From Ferruginibacter sp. (lineage in GTDB: Bacteria; Bacteroidota; Bacteroidia; Chitinophagales; Chitinophagaceae), in NCBI GenBank assembly GCA_039922375.1, contig JBDSAA010000211.1, positions 25,305-89,304 of the forward strand: DNA of 64,000 bases, in the 5' to 3' direction. Shown in pieces: positions 43,652 to 64,000 of the stretch. Made by a program: the position numbers and the translations under genes. A model generated the notes under the pieces. That model saw nothing but the letters and a program-made list of their open reading frames with translations. It did no database searches and was not told the origin of the DNA. Position 1 is the first letter of the stretch. Each line of letters begins with the position of its first letter.

Positions 43652-44419
43652 ATGATACGCTCTTCTAACTTTTTTTTATCAGTTTGTTCGGCCATCTTAT
43701 TATTAAGTAGCTGTGTAGGAAAGGCACCCCTTTATATAAAAGGGAAGGTAAAACTCACGTTTCGCAATATGGTCAGTGGCAGTCCGATGGCATTAAATAC
43801 ATCCGTTTACACCAATCCCTTTGCGGAAACTTACACCATTTCAAAATTTAAGTATTATATCAGTAATGTAAAATTGGGTTTAAGTGGCGTACCCACCACT
43901 GCAACTGATAAAGATGGCTACCATTTGGTAGATCAAAGTTTGCCGGAAAGCCTGAGCTTTAGTTTCGAAGCCGACGAAGGATCATTCGTAACCCTTAGCT
44001 TTTTAATAGGAGTGGATAGTATCAGAAATGTAAGCGGAGCACAAACAGGCGCCTTGGATCCCTTAAAAGATATGTTTTGGACATGGAATAGTGGGTATAT
44101 TATGGCAAAGATGGAAGGCACTTCTCCGCAATCGAACCAGGCGGGCAACAAAATAGAATACCATATAGGGGGTTTTTCAGGAGCTAATAATGCACTTAGA
44201 TATGTGTCGTCCATTTATCCGAATGGCAAAACAGTGGCAATAAGGAGTGGGCAAACCAGTGAAATAATTCTAGAGGCAGATTTTAATAAATGGTGGCAGA
44301 CGCCAAACGACATAAAAATTAAAGACTTGCCTGTATGTACTACTCCCGGAGTGCTTGCAATAAAGGTAGCGGATAATTACAGCGATATGTTTAGAATTGT
44401 TGATGTCGTGAATCACTAA
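43652..44419 (+). CDS. MbnP-like lipoprotein (putative copper-binding partner of the adjacent di-haem peroxidase)
   Basis: Lipobox LLSSC, about 250 aa. The call rests mainly on tight pairing (6-nt gap) with a MbnH/MauG-like di-haem enzyme. Confidence 0.55.
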   Translation: MIRSSNFFLSVCSAILLLSSCVGKAPLYIKGKVKLTFRNMVSGSPMALNTSVYTNPFAETYTISKFKYYISNVKLGLSGVPTTATDKDGYHLVDQSLPESLSFSFEADEGSFVTLSFLIGVDSIRNVSGAQTGALDPLKDMFWTWNSGYIMAKMEGTSPQSNQAGNKIEYHIGGFSGANNALRYVSSIYPNGKTVAIRSGQTSEIILEADFNKWWQTPNDIKIKDLPVCTTPGVLAIKVADNYSDMFRIVDVVNH

Positions 44420-44425
44420 AAAAAT

Positions 44426-45487
44426 ATGAAATTTAAAATATTCATATCATTAATTATCTTTCTCAGCGCTACGGTATTCTTTTTAGACTCATGTAAAAAA
44501 GGCGATATAATAAAGAACGATACTGGTTATCATCCAGTCTCTTTAAAATTTTCAGTGCCTGCCGGTTGGCCGCAGCCACCTACTGATATTTTTAAATCCA
44601 ATCCGTTAACGGAGGAAGGTTTTCAATTAGGTAGAAAATTATTTTACGATGGAAGGTTGAGTAAGGATGGTAATTTTCCCTGTGCCAGTTGCCACCAGCA
44701 ATTTGCTGCATTTGCTACATACGACCATCAGTTCAGTCATGGTTCCGATAATACGTTTGGCACCCGCAATGCACCGGCCCTTTTTAATTTAGCATGGATG
44801 AAAGAAATGCATTGGGATGGAGGCATTAAACATATTGAATTGCAACCGCTGGCGCCTATCACCAATATCAATGAGATGGCGGAGACGATTGATAATGTGC
44901 TAAAGAAACTAAACATCGACAGTTCTTACAAGAGGATGTTCAAAGCGGCCTTTGGAGACAATACCATTACCAGCCAGCAAATGCTGAAAGCTTTGGCACA
45001 ATTTACAGGAAGCATACAATCTTACAACAGTAAATATGACCAGGTAAAACGCGGCAAGGCAAGCTTTACCGTAGCCGAGTTGAACGGATACAACGCCTTC
45101 AAATCAAAATGCAATACATGCCATACTGAGCCCTTGTTTACTGATAATTCTTTTCGTAACAATGGCCTTACACTTGACGCGTTTTTACAAGATAAGGGGC
45201 GAATGGGCATTACAGGGGATCGCAATGATTCCCTAAAATTTAAAGTGCCGGGTTTAAGAAACGTGTCGCTTACCTTCCCTTATATGCATGATGGCAGGCG
45301 CTTTTCTCTTTCCCAGGTAATAGAGCATTACCGTTCGGGAATTGAAATAAACCAACCCACACTTGATCCGCTGTTAAAAAACAGGATTGCTATTACCAAC
45401 CAGCAAAAAATCGATCTGATCGAATTTTTAAATGCCCTTACAGATCAGGTATTGTTACAGGATAAAAGATTTGCACAACCTTTCTAA
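44426..45487 (+). CDS. Di-haem cytochrome c peroxidase family protein (MbnH/MauG-like)
   Basis: Two CxxCH motifs (CASCHQ, CNTCHT) and the PSLRNV-like PGLRNV, with a typical CCP length. Confidence 0.85.
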   Translation: MKFKIFISLIIFLSATVFFLDSCKKGDIIKNDTGYHPVSLKFSVPAGWPQPPTDIFKSNPLTEEGFQLGRKLFYDGRLSKDGNFPCASCHQQFAAFATYDHQFSHGSDNTFGTRNAPALFNLAWMKEMHWDGGIKHIELQPLAPITNINEMAETIDNVLKKLNIDSSYKRMFKAAFGDNTITSQQMLKALAQFTGSIQSYNSKYDQVKRGKASFTVAELNGYNAFKSKCNTCHTEPLFTDNSFRNNGLTLDAFLQDKGRMGITGDRNDSLKFKVPGLRNVSLTFPYMHDGRRFSLSQVIEHYRSGIEINQPTLDPLLKNRIAITNQQKIDLIEFLNALTDQVLLQDKRFAQPF

Positions 45488-46148: not shown

Positions 46149-47663
46149 TTGAGCAGTATTAAAAAATTAGCAGGGCAAACTTTATGGTACGGATTACCCA
46201 CTATTGCAAGCCGGTTTTTAGGATATTTAATGAATATGGCCTTGCCTTTTTTTATAGCCTTGCCAGAAAAAACAGCCGACCTCGTCCAGGTTTATACGAT
46301 CATTCCTTTTTTAAATGTGCTGTTTGCCTACGGCATGGAAACCGCCTATTTCCGGTTCTCTCAAACCCATGACAAGGATAAATTGTACAGCACCCTTTCT
46401 ATCTCACTTTTTTTTAGCAGTATAGTTTTTACGCTATTATTGTTGCTATGCAAGGATGGTATTATTGGCGCCGCTGACCTTACTAACCATCCCGAATATG
46501 TGTTGTGGATGATTGCTATCATCGCAGTTGATAATTTGAACACATTACCCTTTGCAAAATTGCGGCAGGAGAACAGGCCTAAACGTTATGCATTTGCCCG
46601 TATTGCGGGCATTGTAGTTAATCTAAGCGTGGTGATTTTTTTCTTAGGTGTGGCTCCGGACATTGTTAAAAACAATCCTCACAGCGTATTAAACTTCATT
46701 TACAATAAAGATGTTGGGCTGGGTTATTATCTGTTGGGAAACTTATGTGGAAGCCTGTTTACCCTCTTCTTGCTTTCAAAAGAAATAAGGCAGATAAAAC
46801 TGAGCTTTGATACAGTGTTGTGGAAAGAGGTGATGCATTACAGTGCACCGTTAATTATTGTAGGATTAGGCGGTATGGTGAACGATGTACTGAGCAGGCT
46901 GATCTATCGCCATGTAGTGGACCTACCCCGGCAACAGGCCGATCATGAGCTAGGCATATTCGCAAATATTTTTCGCATTGCATTATTGATAACTATTTTA
47001 ATCCAGGCATTCCGGATGGCCGCCGAGCCTTTTTTCTTTAACAAGAGTAAAGACAAAAATGCGCAAATTACCTATGCAAGGGTTATGAAGTTTTTTGTGA
47101 TCGCTTGTTGCTTTATGTTTTTATTAATTGGTTTATACCTGGATGTTTTTAAATGGATATTTACAACATTCGCTAATCCACGGTGGGCCGAAGGTATACA
47201 GGTTGTGCCATTGCTGGCACTTGGCAATATTTTCCTGGGCATCTATTATAATCTCAGTGTTTGGTATAAGCTTACCAATAAAAATAGCTACGGGGCCGTG
47301 ATTACCGTTATTGGGGCGGTCATTACCATTGTTCTCAATATTGTGCTTATCCCAAAGCTACATTATACCGGCGCTGCTATTGCCACCTTTACCTGTTATT
47401 TATTTATGATGATAAGCAGTTATAAACTTGGGCAAAAACATTACCCTGTTCCCTATCCCGTAAAAAAACTCACTTCATACATGGTACTGGTTACTCTGAT
47501 TTATCTCGTTCATTTAGGGATCAATAAAATTTACCCAGGCCATCTTTGGTATTCGCTTACTACAGCTACTTTGTTGTTTGGATTTTTTGCATGGTTTGTA
47601 ACAAAAATAGAAGCAAAGGAACTCGCCAAAATCTCATTTTTTGTAAAATTTTTTAAAAAATAG
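46149..47663 (+). CDS. Polysaccharide/oligosaccharide flippase (Wzx/MOP superfamily)
   Basis: About 500 aa, 12-14 TM helices, N-terminal LAGQTLWYGLPTIASRFLGYL typical of MOP flippases. TTG start. Confidence 0.7.
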   Translation: MSSIKKLAGQTLWYGLPTIASRFLGYLMNMALPFFIALPEKTADLVQVYTIIPFLNVLFAYGMETAYFRFSQTHDKDKLYSTLSISLFFSSIVFTLLLLLCKDGIIGAADLTNHPEYVLWMIAIIAVDNLNTLPFAKLRQENRPKRYAFARIAGIVVNLSVVIFFLGVAPDIVKNNPHSVLNFIYNKDVGLGYYLLGNLCGSLFTLFLLSKEIRQIKLSFDTVLWKEVMHYSAPLIIVGLGGMVNDVLSRLIYRHVVDLPRQQADHELGIFANIFRIALLITILIQAFRMAAEPFFFNKSKDKNAQITYARVMKFFVIACCFMFLLIGLYLDVFKWIFTTFANPRWAEGIQVVPLLALGNIFLGIYYNLSVWYKLTNKNSYGAVITVIGAVITIVLNIVLIPKLHYTGAAIATFTCYLFMMISSYKLGQKHYPVPYPVKKLTSYMVLVTLIYLVHLGINKIYPGHLWYSLTTATLLFGFFAWFVTKIEAKELAKISFFVKFFKK

Positions 47664-47810: not shown

Positions 47811-48827
47811 ATGCGTAAGTTGCTCAACAAAATATTCAGGCCATTATTTGTTCGGTTGGCTGACCGGTATGCCTCTGCGCCAAAGCGGGAAGAAGTATTT
47901 AAATCCTTGACCTCTTTATTAAAAAGTATTAATGAACCAAAAGACAAGCGGGGCATTGTGCTTGATATAAATATTGCCACCGATCGTTTTATTATTTTTA
48001 GCGATCAGCATAAGGGCAATAAAAGTCGCGGCGATGATTTTGAAAACAACGAACCTAATTATATCGCAGCACTCAACTATTATCATGCACAATCTTACAA
48101 CTACATTAATTTAGGCGATGCCGAAGAACTATGGAAATATAAGGTTAACCAGGTGATTCCAATGTATAAGGAGGCATTGCAGGCAGAAGCAAAATTCCAG
48201 TCGGTGAACAAATACTACCGCACATTTGGCAATCATGATCTGCTTTGGAAAAATCAATTAGATGTGAACCTTTACCTTAAACCAATTTTTCCGCTGCCCC
48301 TACCCGTGTACGAAGGGTTGGTTCTGCGGACGGTTGTGAATGAGATTCCCATTCAAGTCTTTTTAACGCACGGCCACCAGGGCGACAAGATGAGCGATAA
48401 CAATGCATTGAGCACCTGGCTGGTGGCACATATTTGGGCACCCATACAGCGCTACCTTGGGATCAATTTAAACACGCCTGCTAATGACTTTTATTTGCGG
48501 GATAAACACAACAGGTTAATGTATGAATGGAGCCGCCGTCGAAAAAATATTATTCTCATTACAGGCCATACGCATAAGCCGGTGTTCGCCTCCGGCAAGT
48601 ATACTCCGGCGGTTTCAAATACTATTAATGTAGAAGACACCCCTGCCAATATACAACCCGCTTACTTCAATTCGGGATGCTGTTGTTACAACGATGGCGA
48701 TATTACCGGTATAGAAATAGCAGATGGCTATATCCGTCTTATCAAATGGAAAATGGTTGACAATGTTTCTCAACGGCATGTATTGGAAGAAAAGGAATTA
48801 GGGAAATTGATACAGGATTTTAATTAG
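47811..48827 (+). CDS. Calcineurin-like metallophosphoesterase
   Basis: Ordered motifs SDQHKG, GDAEELW, GNHD, THGHQGD, GHTH. Confidence 0.8.
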   Translation: MRKLLNKIFRPLFVRLADRYASAPKREEVFKSLTSLLKSINEPKDKRGIVLDINIATDRFIIFSDQHKGNKSRGDDFENNEPNYIAALNYYHAQSYNYINLGDAEELWKYKVNQVIPMYKEALQAEAKFQSVNKYYRTFGNHDLLWKNQLDVNLYLKPIFPLPLPVYEGLVLRTVVNEIPIQVFLTHGHQGDKMSDNNALSTWLVAHIWAPIQRYLGINLNTPANDFYLRDKHNRLMYEWSRRRKNIILITGHTHKPVFASGKYTPAVSNTINVEDTPANIQPAYFNSGCCCYNDGDITGIEIADGYIRLIKWKMVDNVSQRHVLEEKELGKLIQDFN

Positions 48828-48872
48828 GCTGATTAATTTGCTACAGAGTAGTTATGCTTCTAAGCCTCCCCC

Positions 48873-48919
48873 TAAAAAAAAGAACTTCCACAGCTATTGG
48901 ATTGATAGCGTGTGGAAGT
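48873..48919 (-). terminator. Intrinsic terminator of unit A
   Basis: Minus strand reads ACTTCCACACGCTAT caatcca ATAGCTGTGGAAGT tc TTTTTTTT. Confidence 0.8.
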
Positions 48920-49026
48920 ACAATCTAAAACCGTTTTACGGATTTTATGGGATCATCAAAATCTTTGAGGGGTTACCTCCCAGAAAAAACTACCAAATAA
49001 TTTATTCCTGGTTTCAGTGTGTCCGG

Positions 49027-49310
49027 TCTTTTCGATGTCTCACGACATAGCTTTAGGATATTGGATGCGTTTGGTTTTTGGGTCATCATCGCTTTTTACG
49101 GCATAGTCCCGTGATTGGATTTTTTAGTTTTCTGTAGGTTTAGGATTCAGGTTTTTGAGTCATCATCGCTTTTAACAGCATAGTCTCCGGATATTGTTTT
49201 TTAGTCTTCAGTAGGATTTAAGATCTTGGTTTCGAGTCATTATCACTTTTTACAGCATAGTCTCAGAATATTCAATTTAGCAGGTCTTTTTTAGGATTTA
49301 ATTTCTAAAG
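49027..49310 (-). repeat. Tandem repeat array of unit A (4 copies; starts near 49033, 49080, 49157 and 49234; period 77 nt for the full copies)
   Basis: Plus-strand core g(a/g)gtcatcatcgctttttac(a/g)gcatagtc recurs. The copy nearest the terminator and the copy nearest the promoter are degenerate. Confidence 0.85.
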
Positions 49311-49344
49311 AAATTGTCTGTTGTTATTCATTCAACTTCTGATA

Positions 49345-49380
49345 CAAAGATGCGATGGTTTGGAATCGCAAACAATAGCA
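49345..49380 (-). promoter_or_regulatory. Promoter of unit A (-33 TTG within TGCTATTGTT, 20-nt spacer, -7 box CAtcTTTG)
   Basis: Minus strand reads tgctaTTGtttgcgattccaaaccatcgCAtcTTTGtatcag. Units B and C have the same geometry and the same 10-mer. Confidence 0.6.
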
Positions 49381-49872
49381 TAAGCGCTTTGTTTTTCATC
49401 GGATAGCCAATGCTGCCCGTGTAGTGATAATTCTATACATTCAACTATGTCGGGCTATTTTACTTGTTTCCAGTCTTTATTGTAATGGTTATTTGGGAGA
49501 ACATTCCGGCGATACATTGCCCGGGATATTTCGTTTGATTAGGCAAAGCCAGGCTTAGAGGATAAATATCAGGAAATGCGATGTAGTAACTATACTTTGC
49601 AAAGGATAAAACCGTCAGTTTCGATTTGCTTTAACCTCAGTGGAAAAATTCTGTTTAGTATATCAACCTTGTTACCTTGTTTAACATTCGTAATAAGGTA
49701 ATAAGGTCCATCGCTCGTCTGATTTGTTTCTTTATACAAATCACTATTTTTTCCCTCGCGAAGTACAATTAAAATGGAGTTTTTGTTGTTCAGCATTTTT
49801 GTTATCAAAAACCGGATTGGCACAAGAGTTCATTGTGATAATATTTCCTGATTGAGTATGGAGGCGGCTACC

Positions 49873-49919
49873 TAAAAAAAAACTCCCACAGCTATTGGTT
49901 TTTCATAGCGTGTGGAAGT
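49873..49919 (-). terminator. Intrinsic terminator of unit B
   Basis: Minus strand reads ACTTCCACACGCTAT gaaaaacca ATAGCTGTGGGAGT followed by nine T. Confidence 0.8.
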
Positions 49920-50031
49920 CAGTCTAAAACCATTTTACCGGTTTTATGGGATCTTTTTAATTCTTTGAGGGGTTGCCTCCCAGAAAAAATTACCAAATAA
50001 TTTATTCCTGGTTTCAGTGTTTTAGGTCTTT

Positions 50032-50400
50032 TACCATCATCGCCTTGCGGCATAGGCTTAGGATATTGGATTCGTTCGGTTTTTTGGGTCATCATCGCTT
50101 TTTACAGCATAGCCCCGGTTGTTGGATTTTTTAGTTTTCTTTCGGTTTGGACTTGGTTTTTTTGAGTCATCATCGCTTTTTACAGCATAGTCCCGGTTGT
50201 TGGATTTTTTGGTTTTCTTTCGGTTTGGACTTTGGTTTTTTGAGTCATCATCGCTTTTTACGGCATAGTCTCAGGATGTTTAATTTAACTGGTCTTCTTT
50301 AGGATTTTTGATTCTTGGTTTTTTTGAGTCATCATCGCTTTTTATAGCATAGTCTCAGGATGTTGTTTTTTTGGTCTTTTTTAGGATTTAGGTTCTAAGA
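50032..50400 (-). repeat. Tandem repeat array of unit B (5 copies; starts near 50032, 50086, 50164, 50242 and 50326; periods 54, 78, 78 and 84 nt)
   Basis: The copies at 50086 and 50164 are nearly identical over 78 nt. All copies share the core gagtcatcatcgctttttacagcatagtc. Confidence 0.9.
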
Positions 50401-50430
50401 AGTGTCAGTATTACTCTTTCACTTCTGACA

Positions 50431-50466
50431 CAAAGATGCGTTGGTATTTGTTGGTAAACAATAGCA
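50431..50466 (-). promoter_or_regulatory. Promoter of unit B (-33 TTG within TGCTATTGTT, 20-nt spacer, -7 box CAtcTTTG)
   Basis: Minus strand reads tgctaTTGtttaccaacaaataccaacgCAtcTTTGtgtcag. Confidence 0.6.
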
Positions 50467-50721
50467 TTATCGCCCTTTTTTGCTCGTAGAGTAATTACTG
50501 CCGACGTAGTAACACTTCTATACATGCCGATGTAATACTACGTTCATGAGACAGGGATAATACGAGGATGGGTTAACATTATAGGAATATGAGTTGGCTG
50601 CGGCCGGCATTACTGTACTGACTCCCAATGAACTAACGCAGTAAAAGCAATATGGATAAAATTAAAGGCCAGTCCCTGGTGAATAATAAACGCCGGAAAA
50701 AAACGTACAGCATACAATGCA

Positions 50722-50806: not shown

Positions 50807-53800
50807 TTAATAGTAATGCATCATCTTATCGCTTCCGTCGCTTACAGGGATTGTAAAGTGGAAAACACTTCCTTCCAATGGCACTGACTCTACCCATATT
50901 TTACCATGATGCAATTCTACTATTTTTTTGCAATGAGATAAACCTATGCCTGAGCCATGGTATTCTGTACGGGTATGCAGCCGCTGAAAAATAACAAATA
51001 TCCTTTCGCTGTGAACCTTGTCGATGCCAATGCCGTTATCCGCAAATGCAAAATTCCAATAGCCATCACTTTTATCCACCGTTATTTTTATTACCGGTGC
51101 TACACCAGGTTTGCTGAACTTTATAGCATTGATAAGCAGGTTTTGAAACAACTGCTTTATTTCCGTTGGATAACCACTGATGGTGGGTAATTCCTCCGAG
51201 ATAACTTCTGCTCCTGAATCGCCTATCGCTTTATAAAGATCTGCAAGAACATGTTGCAGAACCAGGTTACAATCTATGCTCTCCAGCTCTTTCATTGTCC
51301 CTATCCTTGAATAATCAAGCAAATCTTTTATAAGTGTTTTCATCCTGTCAGAAGAATCAATTATAAATTCGAGGTACTTATCAGCTTTTTCATCCAGCCT
51401 GCCCCGGTACTGCTGCTGAAGCAGTTTCACAAAGCTGGATGTAGTACGGAGCGGTTCCTGCAAATCGTGTGAAGCCACGTAAGCAAACTGCTCCAGTTCC
51501 ATATTTTTTCTTTTCAATTCCTTATTTTTTGACTCAAGCCTTGCTTCAGACTTTTGTAGAAGCGCCTCATCCAGCTTCCGCTTGGTGATGTCTGTGATCA
51601 TCGCGAGACCACCAATAAAATGATCTTCTTTATTTAAGATAGGTGAAGCCGATACACTCGTCCAGATAAGTTTGCCGCTTTTAGTTTTAAAAGGCAGGTC
51701 TATACTTTCTGATAACCCTGCCCTTCTTTTTTGCAAAGCAGGTATTATTATTTTCCTGTCGGCTTCTTCCATAAAATAAGTGATGTGTTTACCAACCATC
51801 TCTTCTGCAGAATACTCAAGTATCGCACACATATTTTCATTCACAAAGAGGCTAAAGTCGTTCTCATCTGTCACCCAAATACCCTCCTGAGCAGTTTCCA
51901 CTATCTGGCGGTAACGTTCTTCGCTAATTTTTAACCTGGCTTCCGCTTCTTTTCTTTCGCTGATATCTACGATCATTCCATCACATATCTCTTCCCCTGT
52001 TATCGGGTCTTCAAATAAAGAAATATTTTCTATCACATGCAATGGCTTGCCCTTCCCTGTCTTCAACACCACTTCCAAATTGTAGAGCTTTTTTTGTTCC
52101 CGTAGCGCTGATATTAAATTCCTTCTTTCGGTAGTTGTAAAATAAAACGCTGCGGCATTGGTTTGCAATACCTCCTGTGGAGACGCATAGCCAAGAATAT
52201 CCGCAAATGCCTGGTTACAAGTAATTATTTTACCCGCAATATTTGTTTGAAAAATTCCGGCAAGGTTGTGTTCGAATAAAGTGCGGTACCGACGCTCGCT
52301 TTCTGCCACATGCAGTTCTGTTTTTTTCCGTTCGGTAATGTCCACGATGGCGCCAATAACCCGAACAGGTTTTCCGAAATCATCCCGTATTACATAGGCT
52401 CTGTCCAATACAGTTCCATACACACCTTCTCTTATTTCATATCTAAATTCATTTTCCCAAAAGTTGACTGTATTTTTTCTTATTTTTCTAAGCCTTCCAA
52501 TAACAGTGTCCCTGTCATCCGGGTGTACTTTTTTAGTCCATTCATATAAATCCGGCACCGGCATATTTTTATCATAACCAAGCAGCTTAAAAAAGCCTTC
52601 ATTCCACCACACATCTTCAGTTAAAAGATTCCAATCCCAAATTGCGTCGTTGGTGGCTTGTGACAGCCTTTGAAATCTTTCTACAGATTCCCGGATATTT
52701 TTTTCGGCATTCCTTCTTTCAGTGATATCCCTAACGATGGTAATAACACGGCCATCAGAAAGCCTTTTCACTGTAATATCCACAGGGATGAGTGTTCCTT
52801 TTTTATTTAAAATATTTTTTTCAAAAGCTATCTTTTCACCTCTTAATAATTTTTGCTTACTGGCTTGGGTGGCCATTTCTGCTCCTAAAATAATTTCAGT
52901 AATATTAATTTGTCCGATTTCTTCCTTTGTATACCCCAGCAAATCACATCCACTTTGGTTGACATCTGTTAATTTACCATCGGGTGTATTTATAAAGATG
53001 GCATCCGATGCCTGCTCTACCAACGAGCGGTGTTTTTCTTCTCCTTCATTAATTAACTGTTCCGATTTCTTACGGGCAGTAATGTCCACCATTATACCTC
53101 TTAGAAATTGTGTGCCGTCCTCGTTTAAAATCACTGATACAATATCCTGCAACCATACAATACTACTGTCTGCCGCTATCATCCTGTATTCAAATTCATG
53201 CGATTTTCTTTCGCTGGTGTACTGCATGCAAATGGATACCGCTGTTTCCCTGTCATCCGGATGTATGTGGTTGGGCCAGAAAAGGGGCGACTCGATCCAT
53301 TCCGAAACAGGGTATCCAAGCAATGCCTCCGCACGTTTACTTACAAAACTAAATTGAAAGGTTGCCGCATTTGCTTCCCACACAATGCCATTAACAGTAT
53401 TTACAAGGTTTTGAAAATTTTGCTCAGATTTCTTTACCTGCTCTTCTACTATTTTCCTGTCGGTAATATCGTGCACAGACCCAATGATCATAATGCAATT
53501 GTTTTTTTCATCCAATACAGGATCGATCGTTACAATGCCCGTTTTAATACCGGTAGGATACGCTGTGGTTTCCTCCCAGTTCACTGTTTTTTTTTCTGTA
53601 GCTGCTTCTGTGTATTTTTCCAATGCAAGTTCCAGTGACGGAGATGGGATTACTTCTTCTATATATTTTCCCTCAACCTGTTTCCTGGATAAACCAGTAG
53701 TAGTTAAAAAAGAACTGTTTACTGAAACAAACTTAAACCGGCTGCTACTTTCTACGCTCAACATGAAAATGCTATCCACCACCGTGTTATAAATAAGGTC

Positions 53801-54418
53801 GAGCTGCCGTTCATTCAATAACAATGCAGCCTCCGATTTTTTTCTTTCTGTTATATCATTCACGATACCTTCTACTCTTATAAGCTTTCCCTCTGCAAGA
53901 GTTGGCACTGCTTTTACCTCTATCCATCTTATGGACAAATCTTTATGAATGATGCGGTAGGAATTTTTAATTGTTATTCCCAGGCATAACGGTCCATTTT
54001 CATTTTCAATTAAATGGCGGTCATCCGGATGAATTACCTGGTACCATAGTATATTGTTGTCATAGAAATCCTCAACGGTATAGCCGTAAATTTTTTCACA
54101 GCCAATAGACACTTGAATATACTTATTAGCGATAATATCCCTGGAAAAAAAGCCTTCGTTTACTTCGTTAAATATGTGGCTAAGTTTATCATGTTCTTTT
54201 TTATGCTCCTCGATTTCCTTCAATAATGTCTCATCCAATTCACCCAATTTAATTGTGCAGTCTTCCACAGAAGTTTGCAGCAATTGTATTTTATCATCAT
54301 ACCTATCAAATGTTTTGTTGATGGAAGCTATAAAACTTACGAAGGATTCAGGCAGTTCCGTTGCATCGCCCAAATATTTTTGTACCTGCTGTTGTAATAA
54401 TTTATTAAGCATAATCAA
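50807..54418 (-). CDS. Multi-PAS sensor histidine kinase (cytoplasmic, about 7 PAS/PAC modules, HisKA + HATPase_c)
   Basis: Repeated PAS-PAC modules ending in DITERK/DITKRK, H-box FAYVASHDLQEPLR, N-box QNLLINAIKF, G-boxes DNGIGI and GSGIGL. Confidence 0.9.
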   Translation of the reverse strand: MIMLNKLLQQQVQKYLGDATELPESFVSFIASINKTFDRYDDKIQLLQTSVEDCTIKLGELDETLLKEIEEHKKEHDKLSHIFNEVNEGFFSRDIIANKYIQVSIGCEKIYGYTVEDFYDNNILWYQVIHPDDRHLIENENGPLCLGITIKNSYRIIHKDLSIRWIEVKAVPTLAEGKLIRVEGIVNDITERKKSEAALLLNERQLDLIYNTVVDSIFMLSVESSSRFKFVSVNSSFLTTTGLSRKQVEGKYIEEVIPSPSLELALEKYTEAATEKKTVNWEETTAYPTGIKTGIVTIDPVLDEKNNCIMIIGSVHDITDRKIVEEQVKKSEQNFQNLVNTVNGIVWEANAATFQFSFVSKRAEALLGYPVSEWIESPLFWPNHIHPDDRETAVSICMQYTSERKSHEFEYRMIAADSSIVWLQDIVSVILNEDGTQFLRGIMVDITARKKSEQLINEGEEKHRSLVEQASDAIFINTPDGKLTDVNQSGCDLLGYTKEEIGQINITEIILGAEMATQASKQKLLRGEKIAFEKNILNKKGTLIPVDITVKRLSDGRVITIVRDITERRNAEKNIRESVERFQRLSQATNDAIWDWNLLTEDVWWNEGFFKLLGYDKNMPVPDLYEWTKKVHPDDRDTVIGRLRKIRKNTVNFWENEFRYEIREGVYGTVLDRAYVIRDDFGKPVRVIGAIVDITERKKTELHVAESERRYRTLFEHNLAGIFQTNIAGKIITCNQAFADILGYASPQEVLQTNAAAFYFTTTERRNLISALREQKKLYNLEVVLKTGKGKPLHVIENISLFEDPITGEEICDGMIVDISERKEAEARLKISEERYRQIVETAQEGIWVTDENDFSLFVNENMCAILEYSAEEMVGKHITYFMEEADRKIIIPALQKRRAGLSESIDLPFKTKSGKLIWTSVSASPILNKEDHFIGGLAMITDITKRKLDEALLQKSEARLESKNKELKRKNMELEQFAYVASHDLQEPLRTTSSFVKLLQQQYRGRLDEKADKYLEFIIDSSDRMKTLIKDLLDYSRIGTMKELESIDCNLVLQHVLADLYKAIGDSGAEVISEELPTISGYPTEIKQLFQNLLINAIKFSKPGVAPVIKITVDKSDGYWNFAFADNGIGIDKVHSERIFVIFQRLHTRTEYHGSGIGLSHCKKIVELHHGKIWVESVPLEGSVFHFTIPVSDGSDKMMHYY

Positions 54419-55309: not shown

Positions 55310-55738
55310 TTAAACAAATACAGATAATAAATATTTTTCTAAGATTGCTTCTAACTTTTTTGCTGTTAAAGGTTTATGCTCAAAACCTGAGATCTGCGGG
55401 AGGTTTGCTGCCTTCAATTCATCTTCAGGAAACAATGAAGTGGTGAGCATTACTACGATGGTTTTATCAGTGGTGTTTATTGCTTTATATTCCTCTAAAA
55501 ACTCCCATCCATTCATAGCCGGCATATTTATGTCAAGAAAGATAAGATTGGGCACAGGATAGTGACCACTATTATCTTTTTCCACCTCGCTCTTTGTTAA
55601 GTACTCCAATGCTTCAGCACCGCTTTCGGCAATTTTAATATGCTCCGTGCAACCTGATTCTTCAAGCATCATTCGGGTAAAAAAGTTGGTCGCCTCGTCA
55701 TCATCAATTACAAGTATGCAGTTCAATTTGTGTTTCAT
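55310..55738 (-). CDS. Stand-alone CheY-like receiver (no output domain)
   Basis: DDD acidic pocket, phospho-acceptor in FLDINMP, MLTTS, KPLT. Confidence 0.9.
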   Translation of the reverse strand: MKHKLNCILVIDDDEATNFFTRMMLEESGCTEHIKIAESGAEALEYLTKSEVEKDNSGHYPVPNLIFLDINMPAMNGWEFLEEYKAINTTDKTIVVMLTTSLFPEDELKAANLPQISGFEHKPLTAKKLEAILEKYLLSVFV

Positions 55739-58154
55739 GGGTTGGATTTTTTTGAATGGTAAAATAAAAAATACTTCCTGTGCCCGGTATAGATTCTACC
55801 CGGATATTTCCTTTATGTAATTCAACAATTTTTTTACAATATGATAAACCGATGCCTGAGCCCGGATAATGTGAACGGTTATTAAGGCGTTGAAAAATAA
55901 CAAAAATTCTTTCACTATGTTTTTTCTCCAACCCTATCCCATTGTCACTAATAGTAAATTCCCAAAAGTCTTCTTTTTCAATTGCAGCAATATTTATTTG
56001 CAGCGGCACATCGTTTTTGCGGAATTTTATTGCATTCGCCAGCAGGTTATGAAAGAGTTGTTTTATCTCGGCGTCATATCCCCGGATAACAGGCAATTCC
56101 CCTACAGTAATGTGGGCACCACTTGTGTGAATAACTACATTGAGGTCATTCAGCACTTCCCGTAAGAGGCACTGTGTGTTTACCAGTTGCAGTTCCTTGT
56201 TTGCCCCAATCCTGGAGTATTCCAGTAATCCCGTTATAAGGGTTCTCATTCTTTCTGACGATTGCATAATAAAGGAAAGGTATTGATCTGCCTTATTATC
56301 GAGCCTGCCAAGGTATTGCTTTTGAAGTAAGCCTACAAAGTTGCCGGTAGTTATCAATGGTTCCTGCAGGTCGTGTGAGGCTACATATGCAAACTGCTGA
56401 AGTTCTTTATTTTTTCTTTCAAGTTCCATATTATTAGCAATTAGCCTGGCTTGGGATTTTCGTATTAATAACTCATCCTGTTTACGCTTAGTAATATCGG
56501 TAAACATTGCCATTGCCCCCTTATAATTTCCGGCTTCATCCAAAACAGGGTTGGTAGATACATTTGTCCATAGAGTTTTACCGCTTTTTGTAACGAAAGA
56601 CGATTCGTGGGTTTCATGCAACCCGCCCTTTCTCCTTTTAATTTGATCCATCGCCTTTTTCTTTTCATCATCATTCTTGAAATCATAATTTTGTTTCCCC
56701 ATCATCTCTTCCCTTGAATATTCAAGCATCTCACACATTTTTTTATTTACAAAAACCGTGTAATTGTTTTCATCAATTACCCAAATGCCCTCCTGTGATG
56801 TTTCTACTATTTGCCTGTATTGTTTTTCACTTTTTAGCAATTCCGCTTCAGCCTTTTTCTGCTCGGTAATGTCCTGGGCTATTCCCGTTAGTCTGATTAG
56901 TTCGCCTTTGTCATTTTTTGTCGGCTTGCCGTGAGCGCTTATTATCTTGGTAATATTTTTACTGCTAATTATCCGGCATTCATAAGAAAACGGCAAATGA
57001 TCCATAACAGATTTGGACATAAGGCTGCGCACGTTTTCTCTATCATCCGGATGTACAAAACTCAGGAACCCTTCATAGCTCGCATTAAACAAATTGCGGT
57101 CTGTATCAAAAACATCATACAATTCATCAGACCACAATAGCCCGTTGTTGACGATATCCCACTCCCAGCTTCCCAGTTTAGCAATGTGTTGAGCTTCGTT
57201 TAAATTTTCATTACTGGCTTTCAAATTATCACGCATTGCTACCAGGGCTTTGCCTAAAGCATCTTCTGCACCTAGTGGTTCAAAATAACTTTCAAAGTTC
57301 CTGTTTCCTATTTCAGTGGCAAATGCGGCAGTAGCTTGCAATTTTTCAGAAAGGTTATTAACAGAACGTATCATCTCGCTGATCTCGTCATTCTTAATAT
57401 CATGCGTTACCTTCCTGGAAATTCCATTACCCAGGTCAGTTACAATATGCCTTATTTTATTGATAGGCTGAATAATTAACCTGGTCATAAATAAGGAAAG
57501 GAATACGCCGATTAAGATCATTGTTACTGACAAAGCAATTATAAACATTCGTAGTTTCGTCGAGTACACACTCACTATATTGTTCTGTACTGTTCTTTCA
57601 GCTATCCAATGGGTTCTGATAGCTTTTATAGAATTAATCAGGCTTGCAGAGCGTGGAAGAACTTCTTCCTCAATCTTTCTTTCTGCTTCAAACTTTATCA
57701 TTGGGTCATCATAATCACTGAACGTTTTTAAATCATTCATTATGCCCTTTTCTATTACCAGTAATTCTTCAAAACCGGCAAATGCTTTGTTTAAACTATC
57801 TACCCAGTTGTTCGCCTTCCATTGAGCTGCATACTTGCTAATTGCTGATTTTAATGCAGGATAATCAGTGACGCGTAATTTTTCTAAAGCCGTTTTGTTC
57901 TCTTCACTAAACCTTAAAAAAACCCAGTTAGTGGTATATATTTTCGACTCAAGCGCCATTCTTCTGAAATCGATAATTGTTTCTAATGAAGGCTCTATCA
58001 CCTTAGTAAGATGGTTAGACGAATGTTGGATATTGTTTAAAGTAATGATTGTCATAATGCTATTTATAATAAATAACACAACTAACAATAAGAAGCTACC
58101 GTAAATTCTGTGCCTGATGCTTATGTTCACGCCGCGTTTAAAATAATTAAGCAT
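55704..58154 (-). CDS. Membrane sensor histidine kinase (2 TM + HAMP-like linker + 2 PAS + HisKA + HATPase_c)
   Basis: N-terminal TM helix, extracytoplasmic region of about 170 aa, second TM helix, PAS modules, H-box FAYVASHDLQEPL, N/G boxes. The 3' end overlaps the receiver gene by 35 nt. Confidence 0.9.
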   Translation of the reverse strand: MLNYFKRGVNISIRHRIYGSFLLLVVLFIINSIMTIITLNNIQHSSNHLTKVIEPSLETIIDFRRMALESKIYTTNWVFLRFSEENKTALEKLRVTDYPALKSAISKYAAQWKANNWVDSLNKAFAGFEELLVIEKGIMNDLKTFSDYDDPMIKFEAERKIEEEVLPRSASLINSIKAIRTHWIAERTVQNNIVSVYSTKLRMFIIALSVTMILIGVFLSLFMTRLIIQPINKIRHIVTDLGNGISRKVTHDIKNDEISEMIRSVNNLSEKLQATAAFATEIGNRNFESYFEPLGAEDALGKALVAMRDNLKASNENLNEAQHIAKLGSWEWDIVNNGLLWSDELYDVFDTDRNLFNASYEGFLSFVHPDDRENVRSLMSKSVMDHLPFSYECRIISSKNITKIISAHGKPTKNDKGELIRLTGIAQDITEQKKAEAELLKSEKQYRQIVETSQEGIWVIDENNYTVFVNKKMCEMLEYSREEMMGKQNYDFKNDDEKKKAMDQIKRRKGGLHETHESSFVTKSGKTLWTNVSTNPVLDEAGNYKGAMAMFTDITKRKQDELLIRKSQARLIANNMELERKNKELQQFAYVASHDLQEPLITTGNFVGLLQKQYLGRLDNKADQYLSFIMQSSERMRTLITGLLEYSRIGANKELQLVNTQCLLREVLNDLNVVIHTSGAHITVGELPVIRGYDAEIKQLFHNLLANAIKFRKNDVPLQINIAAIEKEDFWEFTISDNGIGLEKKHSERIFVIFQRLNNRSHYPGSGIGLSYCKKIVELHKGNIRVESIPGTGSIFYFTIQKNPTHETQIELHTCN

Positions 58155-58410: not shown

Positions 58411-58998
58411 CTATCTTACCAGTGTACCTAGCCGCAAAAGCTCCGAAGCAACATTTAAATCCCTGCTTTCAATATTTGTTTTATTTATTTCCAGTTTCAG
58501 GCGTTCATCTGCAACTACAAAATTTATACACGATCCTTTTGACGCAGCGGCATTGATCTCGGAAACAATTAAAACCGGACTTCCTTTTGTTATGTTAACA
58601 ATCTTCTGTAAGCTTTTACCAGCATCATCACCAATAAATAAAATATGACAGTTATATTTTTTTGCCGAAGCGCTCATTTTCCGGACACTTATCTTCCTGT
58701 TTCCTATAGCCTTACTCTTTACAAATTCATCCAATTCTTCATAAAGCGGTGTATTGCCAATTATGCCAATGATAAAATCGCCGGTATTATAAACAGCGGG
58801 CCATTCAATGTACTTAGTAAACCTATAAATGATATTCGCATGTACTGCATAACTTAAGTCTTGCTGCGCCTTTCCGGAAACTGACAAGCACATCATTACC
58901 ATAAACGCAAAGCCTACTTTGTGATAGAACATTAAAACAAAATAAGTCTTCCTGTTTTTTAAATACATCCTTATATATTTTCCTGATGTGGCTAACAC
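58411..58998 (-). CDS. YfiR-like (DUF4154) periplasmic protein
   Basis: Signal peptide, then VHANIIYRFTKYIEWP ... ILFIG ... VLIVSE ... GSCINFVVADERLKLEIN pattern of DUF4154. The start may be the internal ATG at 58968. Confidence 0.75.
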   Translation of the reverse strand: MLATSGKYIRMYLKNRKTYFVLMFYHKVGFAFMVMMCLSVSGKAQQDLSYAVHANIIYRFTKYIEWPAVYNTGDFIIGIIGNTPLYEELDEFVKSKAIGNRKISVRKMSASAKKYNCHILFIGDDAGKSLQKIVNITKGSPVLIVSEINAAASKGSCINFVVADERLKLEINKTNIESRDLNVASELLRLGTLVR

Positions 58999-59034
58999 AA
59001 TTTATTGCCCGTGGCTTATGTACTTTTTTTATTT

Positions 59035-59505
59035 CTAATTACTTTTATCCCCCACGAATGCCAGTTTACCAGTACTGTCATCCCTCGAGAAATGCTTTTG
59101 CAATATTCTTTCCAGCTTCCCAATTGTTATTGGCTTATTCTCAAAGCCCGAAATTTCAGGCATGCTTTCAGCCCTTTCCCTATCTTCCGGAAAAAGAGAA
59201 GTAGTTAACATAACTGTCATCACTTTGCCCTGTATTTCCTTGTCAAGCTTTTTATATTCTTCTAAAAATTCCCAGCCATCCATCGCAGGCATATTGATGT
59301 CAAGCAATATTAGGTCAGGGCAGGGGTAATAATTTTCGTCACACCCATTTTTATGACTGGTCAACAGGTATGCCAGTGCCTCTTTGCCGCTTTCCACCAT
59401 TTTTATATATTGTGCGCACCCGGCTTCTTCCAATATGATCCGGGTAAAAAAGTTAGTAGCCTCGTCATCGTCAATTACAAGTATGCAATTCAATTTATAT
59501 TTCAT
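59035..59505 (-). CDS. Stand-alone CheY-like receiver (no output domain)
   Basis: Paralog of 55310..55738 (MKYKLNCILVIDDDEATNFFTR..., LLDINMP, MLTTS, KPIT). Confidence 0.9.
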   Translation of the reverse strand: MKYKLNCILVIDDDEATNFFTRIILEEAGCAQYIKMVESGKEALAYLLTSHKNGCDENYYPCPDLILLDINMPAMDGWEFLEEYKKLDKEIQGKVMTVMLTTSLFPEDRERAESMPEISGFENKPITIGKLERILQKHFSRDDSTGKLAFVGDKSN

Positions 59506-62500
59506 CAGTTATTATTTTTATGAATGGTAAAATGAAATATGCACCCTTCTCCTGGTGCAGATTCTACCCAAATTTTTCCTTTATGTAGTTCTACTATTTT
59601 TTTACAATGCGACAAACCGATACCGGAACCTGCATACTCCTTATTGGTATGCAGCCGTTGAAAAATGTCAAATATTCGCTGGCTGTATTTTTCGTCTATA
59701 CCAATACCATTGTCGCTTATAGTGAATTCCCAATAATGCGCTGCTTGTTGCACATCAATTTTTATTCCTGGTATAACGTCCTTCTTACGGAATTTTATTG
59801 CATTGATCACAAGGTTCTGAAAAAGTAATTTGATTTCTGTTGGGTAACCATCTATCACCGGTAACTCAGCAACTTGTATATCAGCGTTCGCTTCTTTTAT
59901 TGCTGCCATAATATCGGCGAGCATTTCCTGCACCAGTATATTGCAGTCAATTTTTTTCAATTCCATATTTGTTCCAATCCTCGAATAATCCAGCAGGTCT
60001 TTAATTACTACTTTCATCCTTGTGGTGGCTTCTAAAATAAACGCCATATATTTATCCGCTTTCTCATCGATCTTTCCATGATATTGCAGTTGCAGCAATT
60101 CCACAATGCCTGCTGTAGTTCTCAACGGTTCCTGCAGATCGTGTGAAGCTACATAGGCAAACTGCTCCAGTTCTTTATTTTTTATTTTAAGTTCTTTATT
60201 AGCAAGTTCAGCTTCAATCCTCGCATGGTCGGCTTCAAGCCTTGCCTTCTGTTCTTCCTGGGTTGAAAGAGATAATTGCAGTGTTTGTTCCTGCACTTTT
60301 TCTTGTAGTTTTCTTCTTTGTGCTTTAATCGCATTTACCCTGTACCCGTAAAATGCCACCATACCACTGATAATTGCAATGACCATCAACAGCCTGAACC
60401 ACCAGGTTAACCAAAAAGGTGGTTCAATGATGAGTTGAATGCTGATGATATTCTTCGACCAGTTGCCTTCATTATTTAATCCCCTAACCTTGAAAATGTA
60501 TTTACCCGGATCAATATTAGTATAAGTCGCTATACGGCTGGTTCCGGCTTCATGCCACTCTTTATCAAAACCTTCCAGGATATAAGCATATTTCTTTTTC
60601 TCGGGTGTTGTATAATTAAGTGTGGCAAATTCAAAAGAGAAAAAAGTGTTAGAATAAGGCAGCGTAATGGTTTTAACTTCCGCTATATTTTTTCTTAAGG
60701 GAGACGAGTCGGAATGATTGATGGGAACAAGTACTTTCTTATTGAAAGCATTGAATTTTGTAATAACCAGCGGAGGCTCAAAAGCAACGGCTTTAACACT
60801 GTCTGGAAAAAATTGGTTAAAGCCATTAGTGCCGCCAAAATACATTACCCCGGATCTGCTTTTGCAGAACGCATGCATTTTAAATTCATTTGACTGCAAG
60901 CCATCGGATACGCTAAAGTTTTTAAAGACTTTTGTTATAGGATTAAAACGGGAAATGCCTTTGTTGGTACTGATCCACAGATTTTTTTTACTGTCTTCCA
61001 GTATTCCGAAAATCACATTATCAGGAAGGCCGTCTGCCATGGTATAAACTGTAAACCGCCCAGTTTTTTTGTTAAAAAAGTTTAGGCCCACCCTCGTTCC
61101 AATCCATAAATTTTTATCCCCGTCTTCAAAAATTGAACTTAAGCTGTTATTACTAATGCTGTTCTTTGTTTCATCATGTAAAAAACGTGAAAAGGATTTT
61201 GTTTTTTTATCATATAGATTTAAACCGTCGCCGTCGGTGCACACCCATAATTGACCATCGCTATCTTCAAAAATAGAAACAACATAAATGCCTGAAATAC
61301 CATTAGTCCGATTAATAGCATATTGGTGATGCGTGAAGGATTTTTGATCAGCATTTAACAGGTCCAGGCCACCACCAAAAGTGCATACCCAGATATTTTT
61401 ATCCCGGTCTTCAAAGATTTTCCAAACATTATTACTATTTAAGCTCGATGGGTTGCCAGGTTCATTTTTGAAATGCCTGAAGGTTTTGCTAGTTGGGTTA
61501 AATACCGTCATTCCATCTCCCCAGGTTCCGGCCCAGATGTTGCCTTTACTGTCTTCGTGTACAGCCAATACATAATCGCCGCAGATGCTTTTTTTGTTAT
61601 TTTTCTCATGGCGAAAATGGGTAAAGTTGCCTGTTGTGGGGTTAAACACATTCAAGCCGCCCCCATCTGTTCCCAGCCAGATATTTTGTTTAGAGTCCTC
61701 AAAGATGCTGAGCACCTGGTTATTGCTGAGGCTGTTGGGTGACAGCATATGCTTATAATGTGCAAACCTGGCTTTATCCCGGTTTGCCATGTCAATACCA
61801 CCGGTAAAGGTGCCCAGCCACATATTGCTTTTAAGATCCTTATAAACAGAATAAATAGAATTACTGCTGATGCTTTCTCCGTCAATTTCGTCGTGCTTGT
61901 AAGTGGTAAATGAGCCGGCATCATAATTAAAAATAGATAACCCTCCGTTTTCAGTGCCAATCCACAGATTATTCTCAGCATCTTCCGTAATGGCATACAC
62001 AGTATTTGCCGCCACGCTATTTGCATTATTTTCATCGTGTTTAAAATGAGTAAATGCCCCGGTTTCCATGTTAAATAAATCCATTCCTGCACCATCAGTT
62101 CCTACCCATAAACGACGCTTACTATCTTCAAACATGGTGTACACATTATTGCTGCCTATGGAATGTCTGTTCTTTTTATCATGCTGAAAACGAGTAAAGT
62201 TTTTGTTTTTCCTGTTTAGCAAATTGATTCCTCCATTCAGCGTGGCCATCCAGATATTATGGCTCATGTCTTCGAAAATATACCTTATATAAGAATCGCT
62301 GATACTCTTATTGTCGGCCAGGTTATGCGTAAAATGTTCCATTTTATTTGTTACCGGGTCCAGCATATCCAATCCTGCTTCTGTACCAATCCAGATTTTT
62401 CCGTACTCATCCTCAAGTAAGCCATGTACCACATCGTGAGAAATGCTGTTTGCATTTTTCGGGTCATGCGTGTAGTTAGTAAAACTTTCTTTGTTTCGAT

Positions 62501-62831: not shown

Positions 62832-63349
62832 CTAATTGCTCTTTTTCGGATAGAAGGATGAGGTCACCTTTTTTTTCTTGTGTCGTTAGCTACTATAATG
62901 TTTCTTTCTATTACTCTTGTCATAAAATCATCGCCAATTCTTCAGTACTTCATTGCTGGCGGTGCAAATACCCGGGTAAATAATAATTAAATTCTGGCAG
63001 CAACTTAACGTGGCTGATAGACCCATTAGAAATTTTCCGTAAACAAAAAACCCCCGTCAGGAGGCCGTAAAGGTTGTTGCAAACTTAATTTTCGAAAAAT
63101 ATTCGCTTCAGAACGGCTTCATAATAACTTTCTTAAACAATCAATTTAAATACTGCGGCGGGGGCAATCGTTTAATTTCAAGGCTATATTATGAAGTAAA
63201 GGTTCATAAAACTTAAATTATAAAAGGTAGAAAAACAAACCATTGTGATGTAGCTATATGTCTATTACCAGGGATTAGATATAAAGATGCCATAGAAAAC
63301 AGATAGCATTTCGTAAAATACTGCATGGCCAATTGTAGATTAGGAAAAA

Positions 63350-63393
63350 TAAAAAACTTCCACAACTAATGGTTTTTCATAGTCTGTGGAAGT
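63350..63393 (-). terminator. Intrinsic terminator of unit C
   Basis: Minus strand reads ACTTCCACAGACTAT gaaaaacca TTAGTTGTGGAAGT TTTTTATTTTT. Confidence 0.75.
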
Positions 63394-63495
63394 ATAATTT
63401 TGCGAACGTTTTAATAAGTTCACGTAGATCAGGGTGTGTTAGCCATTGTCCCAGAGCAATTTAATAATTTTCTGGTTTGGGTTGCATTTGGTTTT

Positions 63496-63700
63496 GGCCA
63501 TCATCGCTTATTACGGCATAGGCCAGGATATTGGTATTGGTTTTTGGGTCATCATCGCTTCTTACGGCATAGGCCCGGATACTGGTTTTTTGTCTTCTTT
63601 AGTTTTTGGATTGAACTGGTTTTTGGCCATCATCGCTTTTTAAAGCATAAGCCGGATATTGTCTTCCTGGTTTTAATTTGGATACTGGATTTCTATTTTT
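63496..63700 (-). repeat. Tandem repeat array of unit C (3 copies; starts 63496, 63546 and 63625; periods 50 and 79 nt)
   Basis: Plus-strand core gg(c/g)(c/t)catcatcgct(t/a)(a/c/t)tta(c/a)(g/a)gcata(g/a)gcc recurs three times. Confidence 0.85.
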
Positions 63701-63730: not shown

Positions 63731-63766
63731 CAAATATCAGGCAGTAACAGTTGCTCAACAATAGCA
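63731..63766 (-). promoter_or_regulatory. Promoter of unit C (-33 TTG within TGCTATTGTT, 20-nt spacer, -7 box GAtaTTTG)
   Basis: Minus strand reads tgctaTTGttgagcaactgttactgcctGAtaTTTGcatcag. Confidence 0.55.
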
Positions 63767-64000
63767 ATATTGCTCTTTTTCTTAAACAGAATAAGTACTA
63801 AAATATTAGTATTAATGCTACATTGTTATATGAATTAATACGTGCCTTCTCAAACGTATTATTACGATTATTTATCAATTCATCATCGCTGGACACACCC
63901 AGCTTGTTAAAATAATATTAACACTAGTTTAGTTCTTTCAATTTTTACTTTTTATGAAACCCTCTACAGCTATGGCTGTTAGCGATATTAACTCTCCGAT

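Follow-up and report, generated by a model that had tools for sequence, protein, structure and literature searches.

Tandem hairpin arrays of Ferruginibacter as modules of a multi-paralog small non-coding RNA family with a possible protein-binding function

The stretch of DNA analysed here, referred to as the window, comprises 64,000 nt of Ferruginibacter sp. (assembly GCA_039922375.1, contig JBDSAA010000211.1, positions 25,305-89,304, forward strand). Its minus strand carries three arrays of a hairpin repeat, A1 (approximately 48872-49400), A2 (49868-50476) and A3 (63345-63776), which are complete genes of one small RNA (sRNA) family. A1 and A2 are tandem paralogs; A1 holds three units and a relic, and A3 holds three units. 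The hairpin-repeat RNAs constitute a new, modular, multi-paralog family of non-coding RNAs that is absent from Rfam. The repeats would be the modules of independently transcribed RNAs of about 400-600 nt that serve a protein as multivalent sponge or scaffold, a reading to which we give an even chance.

The plus-strand pattern ATCATCGCTTTTTACRGCATA, with at most three mismatches, matches the window 10 times, while none is expected from 100 shuffles; four matches fall in A2 (50091-50351), three in A1 (49085-49259) and three in A3 (63500-63649). The repeats that a first-pass annotation had placed at 50032-50400 are thus real, but that span covers one of the three arrays and only its repeat part. 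Two additional, degenerate units close A2 (50027-50062) and A1 (approximately 49028-49056). The repeat period is 77-78 nt by TRF, and the transcription unit of A2 is predicted to be about 560 nt long. The elements of the three genes are given below; bit scores are those of a search of the window with the covariance model (CM) R1, and folds are minimum free energy (MFE) structures where so named.

50460..50476, minus strand: A2 promoter upstream element GGGCGATAATGCTATTG, the window form of the family's AGAGC-N6-GCTCTTGT inverted repeat/-33 region
50431..50438, minus strand: A2 -7 box CATCTTTG of the Bacteroidetes TAnnTTTG type
50398..50426, minus strand: A2 5' hairpin CAGAAGUG...CACUUCU, from the MFE and centroid folds and homologous 5' sequences at other loci
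50322..50359, minus strand: A2 unit 1, canonical hairpin module, CM R1 53.4 bits
50238..50275, minus strand: A2 unit 2, canonical hairpin module, CM R1 56.7 bits
50160..50197, minus strand: A2 unit 3, canonical hairpin module, CM R1 57.1 bits
50082..50119, minus strand: A2 unit 4, canonical hairpin module, CM R1 58.2 bits
50027..50062, minus strand: A2 terminal variant unit with outer stem and internal loop kept, CM 31.1 bits and MFE structure
49920..50026, minus strand: A2 3' domain with ACACUGAAACCAGG, the helices CCAG/CUGG and GAGG/CCUC, and AUCC, from a 24-locus alignment and downstream sequences
49874..49919, minus strand: A2 intrinsic terminator ACUUCCACA...UGUGGGAG followed by U9, from its fold, a 9-bp stem being predicted in 24/24 aligned loci
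49372..49389, minus strand: A1 promoter upstream element AAGCGCTTATGCTATTGT, by family pattern
49345..49352, minus strand: A1 -7 box CATCTTTG, by sequence and family pattern
49230..49267, minus strand: A1 unit 1, CM 41.7 bits
49153..49190, minus strand: A1 unit 2, CM 51.2 bits
49076..49113, minus strand: A1 unit 3, CM 56.3 bits
49028..49056, minus strand: A1 relic terminal unit, by sequence and alignment the positional homolog of 50027-50062
48872..48919, minus strand: A1 intrinsic terminator, by sequence and alignment
63758..63776, minus strand: A3 promoter upstream element AGAGCAATATTGCTATTGT, which includes the palindrome AGCAATATTGCT, by family pattern
63731..63738, minus strand: A3 -7 box GATATTTG, by sequence
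63620..63657, minus strand: A3 unit 1, CM 54.8 bits
63542..63579, minus strand: A3 unit 2, CM 53.7 bits
63491..63528, minus strand: A3 unit 3, CM 52.3 bits
63345..63393, minus strand: A3 intrinsic terminator ACUUCCACAGACUAUGAAAAACCAUUAGUUGUGGAAG followed by a U-run, by sequence

Transcription of A2 would most likely start at about position 50425, a few nucleotides past the -7 box. The 5' hairpin of A2 corresponds, in abbreviated form, to the 5' domain of the family, which follows the start site, is closed by CAGAAGUUGA/UCAACUUCU and is shortened in the window copies. In the terminal variant unit of A2, a GCAA tetraloop caps the inner helix UGCC/GGCG. The relic of A1 has retained the inner hairpin UGUC-GUGA-GACA and lost the 3' half of the internal loop; relative to the terminal unit of A2, a C-G pair of the inner helix is exchanged for U-A.

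A genome scan with TATGCYNTWANAAGCGATGATG, with one genome per species, returned at least 118 loci, and the unit, array, promoter and terminator counts given here refer to the window together with the matches listed from them. Nearly all of the listed loci belong to Ferruginibacter, Chitinophagaceae or Chitinophagales metagenome-assembled genomes; the cultured carriers among them are Ferruginibacter paludis CECT 8366 and Ferruginibacter sp. HRS2-29. At least 396 units, at least 381 of them distinct, are found in at least 198 arrays with 1-8 units per array, and the distances between units fall into three clusters, of 49-60 nt (mode 56), 77-86 nt and approximately 103-113 nt. Paralogy is evident from the three genes in the window and, among the matches listed, reaches 16 units in 6.3 kb at one locus (L066). 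Single matches at two Erysipelotrichaceae loci (L072, L074) lie by chance inside coding sequence, as do two matches on viral contigs. No Rfam family matched the whole window at the gathering score; nothing relevant, and no Csr/Rsm RNA, was found for positions 48800-50600 at E values up to 10. No description of the motif was found in literature searches, including those with the core sequence.

Each unit consists of a 21-nt core flanked by an outer stem of 4-5 bp, the sequence of which is free to covary. With positions counted from the first base of the core, the pairs in the 381 distinct units are distributed as follows.

Pair -1/+21: C-G 324, U-A 45, U-G 10, non-pair 2
Pair -2/+22: C-G 228, U-A 64, A-U 9, A·A class 55
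Pair -3/+23: G-C 320, A-U 41, G-U 14, non-pair 5
Pair -4/+24: G-C 92, U-A 78, A-U 62, U-G 30, G-U 19
Pair -5/+25: paired in one subfamily only

Four to five pair types each are found at -2/+22 and -4/+24. Among 139 diverse units, double-sided changes at all five pairs add up to 160 cells, compared with 74 ± 6 after shuffling of columns, and none of 500 shuffles reached the observed value; in the same units the outer stem is paired to 85.5%, versus 23-51% when the partner strand is shifted by 1-3 columns. Being paralogs, the units are not independent samples; the covariation signal is nevertheless robust, because 143 distinct stem combinations are represented. The outer stem is real and strongly backed by covariation. 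The flanking 5-mers of the ten window cores had been listed correctly in the first-pass annotation (GAGAC/GACUC four times; GGGAC/GACCC, GGGGC/GACCC, GGGCC/GACCC, GGGAC/GACUC, UGGCC/GGCCA and CGGCU/GGCCA once each), and the covariation proposed from them holds very strongly in the 381 distinct units, to which at least 118 further loci contribute. The weak statistics then conceded for 12 copies are overcome by this enlarged data set. The statement that all ten cores read UAUGCYGUAAAAAGCGAUGAU has to be corrected, since four are exact and the other six have one or two mismatches.

The core had further been regarded as a 21-nt single-stranded loop, which does not stand. It contains an inner helix formed by U2·G15, G3-C14, C4-G13 and, when position 5 is U, U5-A12, which closes the apical loop GUAAAA and is independently predicted by RNAalifold. 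Both helices are present in the MFE structure of 223 out of 345 isolated units; U2·G15 is found in 379/381 units, and G3, C4, G13 and C14 are invariant in the canonical ones. In the 25 units of variant length, the G-C and C-G pairs are kept, the next pair being U-A in 13, C-G in five and U·G in three cases. The apical parts of the variants comprise GUAA, GAAA and GCAA tetraloops, the element GCUG-CYAACCA-CAGC, a 5-bp GCCUU/AAGGC stem and, at one locus (L033), a 50-nt hairpin insertion. The GCUG-CYAACCA-CAGC element defines a second unit type, in which it replaces GCY-GUAAAA-AGC while outer stem and internal loop are unchanged; it occurs at nine of the listed loci (L007, L026, L065, L080 at 1594-1625, L088, L089, L094, L096 and L110), often at the 3' end of the array. 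All unit types have in common the asymmetric internal loop (5' UA/3' AUGAU) together with its closing pairs. According to this folding model the core is not open and comprises an inner helix and an asymmetric internal loop that is itself structured.

The minus strand is supported as the transcript sense by wobble pairs, promoters, terminators and an A/C-rich composition, in agreement with the preference already noted in the first-pass annotation. When the strands are compared, the outer stem has 83 G·U against 45 A·C in its four inner pairs, which modestly favours the minus strand, and the near-constant U2·G15 pair points the same way. Compared with its shuffles, the minus-sense transcript of A2 is more stably folded (z = -3.4), whereas the plus sense is not (z = -0.9). 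The linkers consist of 54% A, 25% C, 13% U and 8% G. A conserved CCAAUAUCC stands at the linker end directly 5' of each hairpin, and AUCC occurs 436 times in the arrays versus 84 expected, a 5-fold enrichment; AUCC/CCAAUAUCC may be a second recognition element.

Each array of the window is preceded by a -7 box of the Bacteroidetes type and followed, 130-300 nt past the last unit, by a strong hairpin and a U-run. In the family, GCATCTTTG (at most one mismatch) lies upstream of 96 of 109 arrays, and in 77 of the 78 arrays having both elements, TGCTCTTGT (at most two mismatches) is located exactly 18 nt upstream of it. TGCTCTTGT is part of AAAAAAGAGCAAUAnCGCUCUUGU, an inverted repeat AGAGC-N6-GCTCT(TGT) overlapping the -33 region; a second inverted repeat, TTACG-N7-9-GTAAT, is found farther upstream. 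These promoter repeats are probably the operator of a transcription factor. At the other end of the gene, the 3' domain helices CCAG/CUGG and GAGG/CCUC covary in some loci, for instance to CCGG/CCGG in L010 and L075, and the terminator is conserved in sequence in 72 of 107 arrays, the predicted transcript end being UGUGGAAG followed by a U-run. The terminator hairpin sequence ACUUCCACAGACUAUGAAAAAC.A.UAGCUGUGGAAG is kept across paralogs and genera, which is unusual for a plain terminator; such conservation hints at an extra role, which might be protein binding. A generic scan of the window for sigma-70 promoters and simple terminators did not pick up the signals of the arrays, since the promoters are of another type and the terminator loops are larger than the 8 nt that it allows; the terminators were identified by folding and alignment instead.

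Paralogs outside the syntenic site described further below, including A1 and A2 of the window, are preceded at a distance of 324-514 nt by PAS sensor-kinase genes on the same strand, and A3 lies upstream of another such PAS-type kinase gene. PAS or propeller sensor histidine kinases are encoded in the window at 50807-54418, 55704-58154 and 59505-62831, all on the minus strand, and also at the loci L015, L037, L045 and L078; the kinases adjoining sRNA genes share HisKA-HATPase modules with 62-72% identity. A regulatory link between the neighbouring sensor kinases and the sRNA genes is possible. Between two of the window's sensor kinases, at 58411-59505 (minus strand), a YfiR/HmsC-like (DUF4154) protein and a stand-alone receiver-domain protein are encoded. 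Elsewhere in the window, a pair of the copper-acquisition type, an MbnP-like protein followed by a di-haem cytochrome c peroxidase/MauG-like protein, is found at 43652-45487 (plus strand), and an open reading frame (ORF) of 504 amino acids at 46149-47663 (plus strand) has no Pfam match at E values up to 0.001.

From these observations the following scenario would arise. The gene is laid out as a promoter with palindrome and GCATCTTTG, a 5' hairpin domain, 2-8 hairpin modules, a structured 3' domain and a terminator, each module consisting of outer stem, asymmetric internal loop, inner helix and an apical loop that is usually GUAAAA. By way of its structured internal loop, each module would be recognised and bound by a single RNA-binding protein or, if that protein is oligomeric, by one of its protomers. 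The RNA would then be a multivalent sponge or scaffold, and a transcription factor would control its amount through the palindrome common to the promoters. What suggests multivalent protein binding is the combination of a conserved internal loop repeated on variable stems, unstructured spacers and co-regulated paralogs. As in the sponge class, many copies of a motif are carried on an RNA with its own predicted promoter and terminator and no coding signal. Isolated hairpins in mRNA leaders were not found, the loose matches being noise from coding sequences.

Several points weigh against this scenario. The transcripts are predicted from sequence signals, and we infer the protein binding, the titration from other targets and the PAS-kinase input to the promoter. 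No gene for an RNA-binding protein is linked to the loci, the neighbours being those for CBS, BtuF-like, AccD and Fba proteins and PAS kinases; weaker copies of the motif in mRNAs, as targets of a titrated protein, were not seen in the approximately 0.9 Mb searched. In canonical units, G3-C14 and C4-G13 are beyond a covariation test because the core is nearly invariant, and a metagenome scan for units mutated at G3 gave a single match, a chance one in an IF-2 gene, so that G3 is effectively invariant. Finally, RNA-RNA contacts or a ligand could explain the strong conservation of the loop sequence just as well.

The first of these last two possibilities leads to the explanation that the loops GUAAAA and AUGAU and the AUCC linkers pair or dock with other RNAs, for instance an sRNA, mRNA starts or rRNA, the transcript being an RNA sponge or a self-assembling RNA based on GNRA-like loops, and not a protein sponge. 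The extreme conservation of the loop bases speaks for it, as do the GNRA or GNRA-like apical loops (GUAA(AA), GCAA, GAAA and GUGA), the enrichment of AUCC and the resemblance of the core to an A-rich start region followed by AUGAUG. However, no complementary partner was found in the window, where all matches are the repeats themselves, and A/C-rich linkers are unable to pair with the A-rich start regions that are typical of the phylum. Moreover, variant units drop the apical loop and keep the internal loop, which suits recognition of a shape better than pairing. RNA-RNA contact as the basis of the family is considered unlikely.

A regulatory role in cis deserves attention in view of the genomic position of the family. 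About 60 loci, approximately half of those listed, represent one syntenic site with the order S41 peptidase, CBS-domain cystathionine-beta-synthase, sRNA gene, BtuF-like protein, AccD and Fba. Array and terminator, situated there between the CBS gene and the same-strand BtuF-like, accD and fba genes, might regulate the latter by means of a multimeric attenuation protein that binds RNA, similar to TRAP on the repeats of the trp leader, and the ATG of the BtuF-like gene is indeed only 17-39 nt past the sRNA terminator. The gap, however, contains a TAnnTTTG box of its own 4-6 nt before that ATG (L055 at 1078-1130, L025, L028, L054, L085 and others); the BtuF-like gene is therefore probably expressed as a leaderless mRNA and is not the cargo of the array. 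The promoter of the BtuF-like gene appears to overlap the U-run of the sRNA terminator. In the window, A1 and its neighbour converge, A2 has A1 behind it, and 500 nt separate A3 from the next gene; in addition, the arrays own a conserved promoter. A cis-acting leader is quite improbable.

It could also be argued that the units are translated. In such a minigene reading each unit would supply AUG-CYN-UAA and then AUG-AUG-..., with short peptides or peptidyl-tRNA drop-off as the outcome, for which the bar minigenes of phage lambda are a parallel. AAA-GCG-AUG-AUG continues the frame of the mini-ORF AUG-CYN-UAA, position 6 is as free to vary as a wobble base (G 211, U 98, C 61, A 11), several ORFs end exactly at the UAA of the next unit, and the A-rich context before AUG suits the initiation without a Shine-Dalgarno sequence in Bacteroidota. 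Against this, there is no frame preference, the AUGAUG frame being open to the next unit in 172 of 221 units versus 163 of 221 for frame +2. The unit periods, including those of 51-57 nt, show no preference for multiples of three, the ORF lengths are erratic (8-58 amino acids), variant units shift the frame while preserving the helices, and the stem covariation maintains pairing and not codons. The small-ORF reading with MMTQK... peptides from AUGAUG was rejected for want of frame preference, for the periods and for the unconserved frame. Likewise discarded was a 58-amino acid ORF at 49919-50095, which is not continuous in A1 and is spread over more than one frame in homologs. A 77-amino acid ORF at 49590-49823 (minus strand), between A2 and A1, has no Pfam match and no homolog in the at least 118 related loci and is therefore probably not a gene. 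The arrays are non-coding, and little credence is left for minigenes. An origin at the DNA level, as REP/MITE-like palindromes, iterons, a CRISPR-like array or type III antitoxin repeats, would agree with tandem repeats that have short inverted flanks and with spacers that vary between conserved repeats, but is highly improbable given the excess of G·U over A·C with U2·G15 held constant, the conserved promoter and terminator, the fixed syntenic location in about 60 genomes, the low-complexity A/C-rich spacers, the finding of no nuclease, cas, toxin, transposase or RAYT gene among the neighbours of the loci, and viral contigs that are free of the motif apart from the two chance coding matches.

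Returning to the multivalent protein-binding sponge or scaffold, a more far-reaching version may tentatively be put forward, according to which these RNAs are the RNA half of a global post-transcriptional system in Chitinophagaceae, where palindrome-controlled sponge paralogs, possibly driven by PAS kinases, would titrate a protein that binds the internal loop. We regard this extended scheme as possible and on the doubtful side. If it were true, the system would be a functional counterpart of Gac-Rsm/Csr in which a structured internal loop is bound instead of a single-stranded triplet. No protein-titrating RNA is known from Bacteroidota, a phylum that is not known to have the classical partner proteins of sRNAs, such as CsrA, Hfq and ProQ. 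In a set of 58 gut Bacteroidetes genomes, Chitinophagaceae excluded, neither CsrA nor canonical RNA chaperones were found (bioRxiv 10.1101/2021.04.27.441718). Irrespective of function, a concrete new RNA family, abundant in Chitinophagaceae of freshwater, soil and activated sludge, becomes available for annotation. It supplies a covariation-backed bait hairpin of 31-38 nt, a conserved promoter operator and two cultured hosts; owing to the short bait, the operator and these hosts, the question of the protein and its regulon is directly testable.

Among known systems, several can be set apart from the family by a defining feature. Type III antitoxin RNAs (ToxI-like) have near-identical contiguous repeats of about 36 nt and, past a terminator, an endoribonuclease toxin gene, while the periods here are 49-113 nt with variable linkers, and BtuF-like, AccD and Fba genes or none are located downstream. 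A CRISPR array was rejected because the stems differ between units, the spacers are A/C-rich and of low complexity, and no cas-like neighbours were found. The dual-hexaloop substrate of ANTAR proteins requires A1 and G4, and the hexaloop GUAAAA has G1 and A4. In the 11-nt receptor of GAAA tetraloops (UAUGG/CCUAAG), the UAUGG strand is resembled by UAUGC; the partner strand is GCGAUGAUG.

The kink-turn and the box C/D motif (RUGAUGA...CUGA) come closer in shape, since there, too, two helices flank an asymmetric loop of 2 x 5 (3 x 6) nucleotides with a 3' strand (G)AUGAUGR, and the register G21-C(-1), U20·U0 corresponds to stem II of box C/D. Unlike in these motifs, A is present at +22 in only 129 of 381 units. 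On its 5' side the internal loop invariably reads UAU and has no GA, and tandem sheared G·A pairs are impossible because UAU and not (CU)GA is the opposite strand. The Rfam family sR38 scores 13-15 bits versus a gathering score of 50, and membership was rejected.

Within Bacteroidota, FopS and GibS of Bacteroides thetaiotaomicron are sRNA families with multiple copies, to which the RRM protein RbpB binds (PMC11697453). They share with the present family the phylum, the existence of multiple paralogs, the promoter type and a non-canonical RNA-binding protein, which is presumed here. They differ in being short single-seed base-pairing sRNAs of Bacteroidales without tandem hairpin modules, and they have no sequence similarity to the RNAs of Chitinophagales. 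CrcZ and CrcY of Pseudomonas, which titrate Hfq/Crc, resemble the family in repeated motifs within A-rich, C-containing and G-poor single-stranded stretches and in the logic of titration. The motifs of CrcZ are unstructured AAnAAnAA elements, whereas the dominant conserved element here is a hairpin, for which Rfam has no match; moreover, Bacteroidota are not known to possess Hfq.

The CsrB/CsrC and RsmX/Y/Z sRNAs remain the most instructive comparison. Membership in that class was rejected for the absence of GGA from the loops and of a covariance-model match, as the first-pass annotation had already surmised when it noted that the loop motif differs: in contrast to the GGA (ANGGA) loops of Csr/Rsm RNAs, GGA occurs in the 21-nt core of one out of 381 units and anywhere in the hairpin in 43 out of 381, and the window transcripts contain only 3-6 GGA each, none of them in the repeated loops. 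What is conserved is not a single-stranded triplet but a structured internal loop with the inner hairpin next to it, and the RNAs of the family are longer and have conserved 5' and 3' domains. The analogy to protein-titrating sponge RNAs had originally been drawn on the premise of an identical single-stranded motif, which has to be abandoned; as a tentative functional analogy it is reasonable. Like the Csr/Rsm sRNAs, the RNAs of this family would combine many copies of a short hairpin motif with unstructured A/C-rich linkers and a Rho-independent terminator, are encoded by several, sometimes tandem paralogs per genome, share a palindromic upstream element comparable to the GacA/UvrY box, and have sensor-kinase genes nearby.

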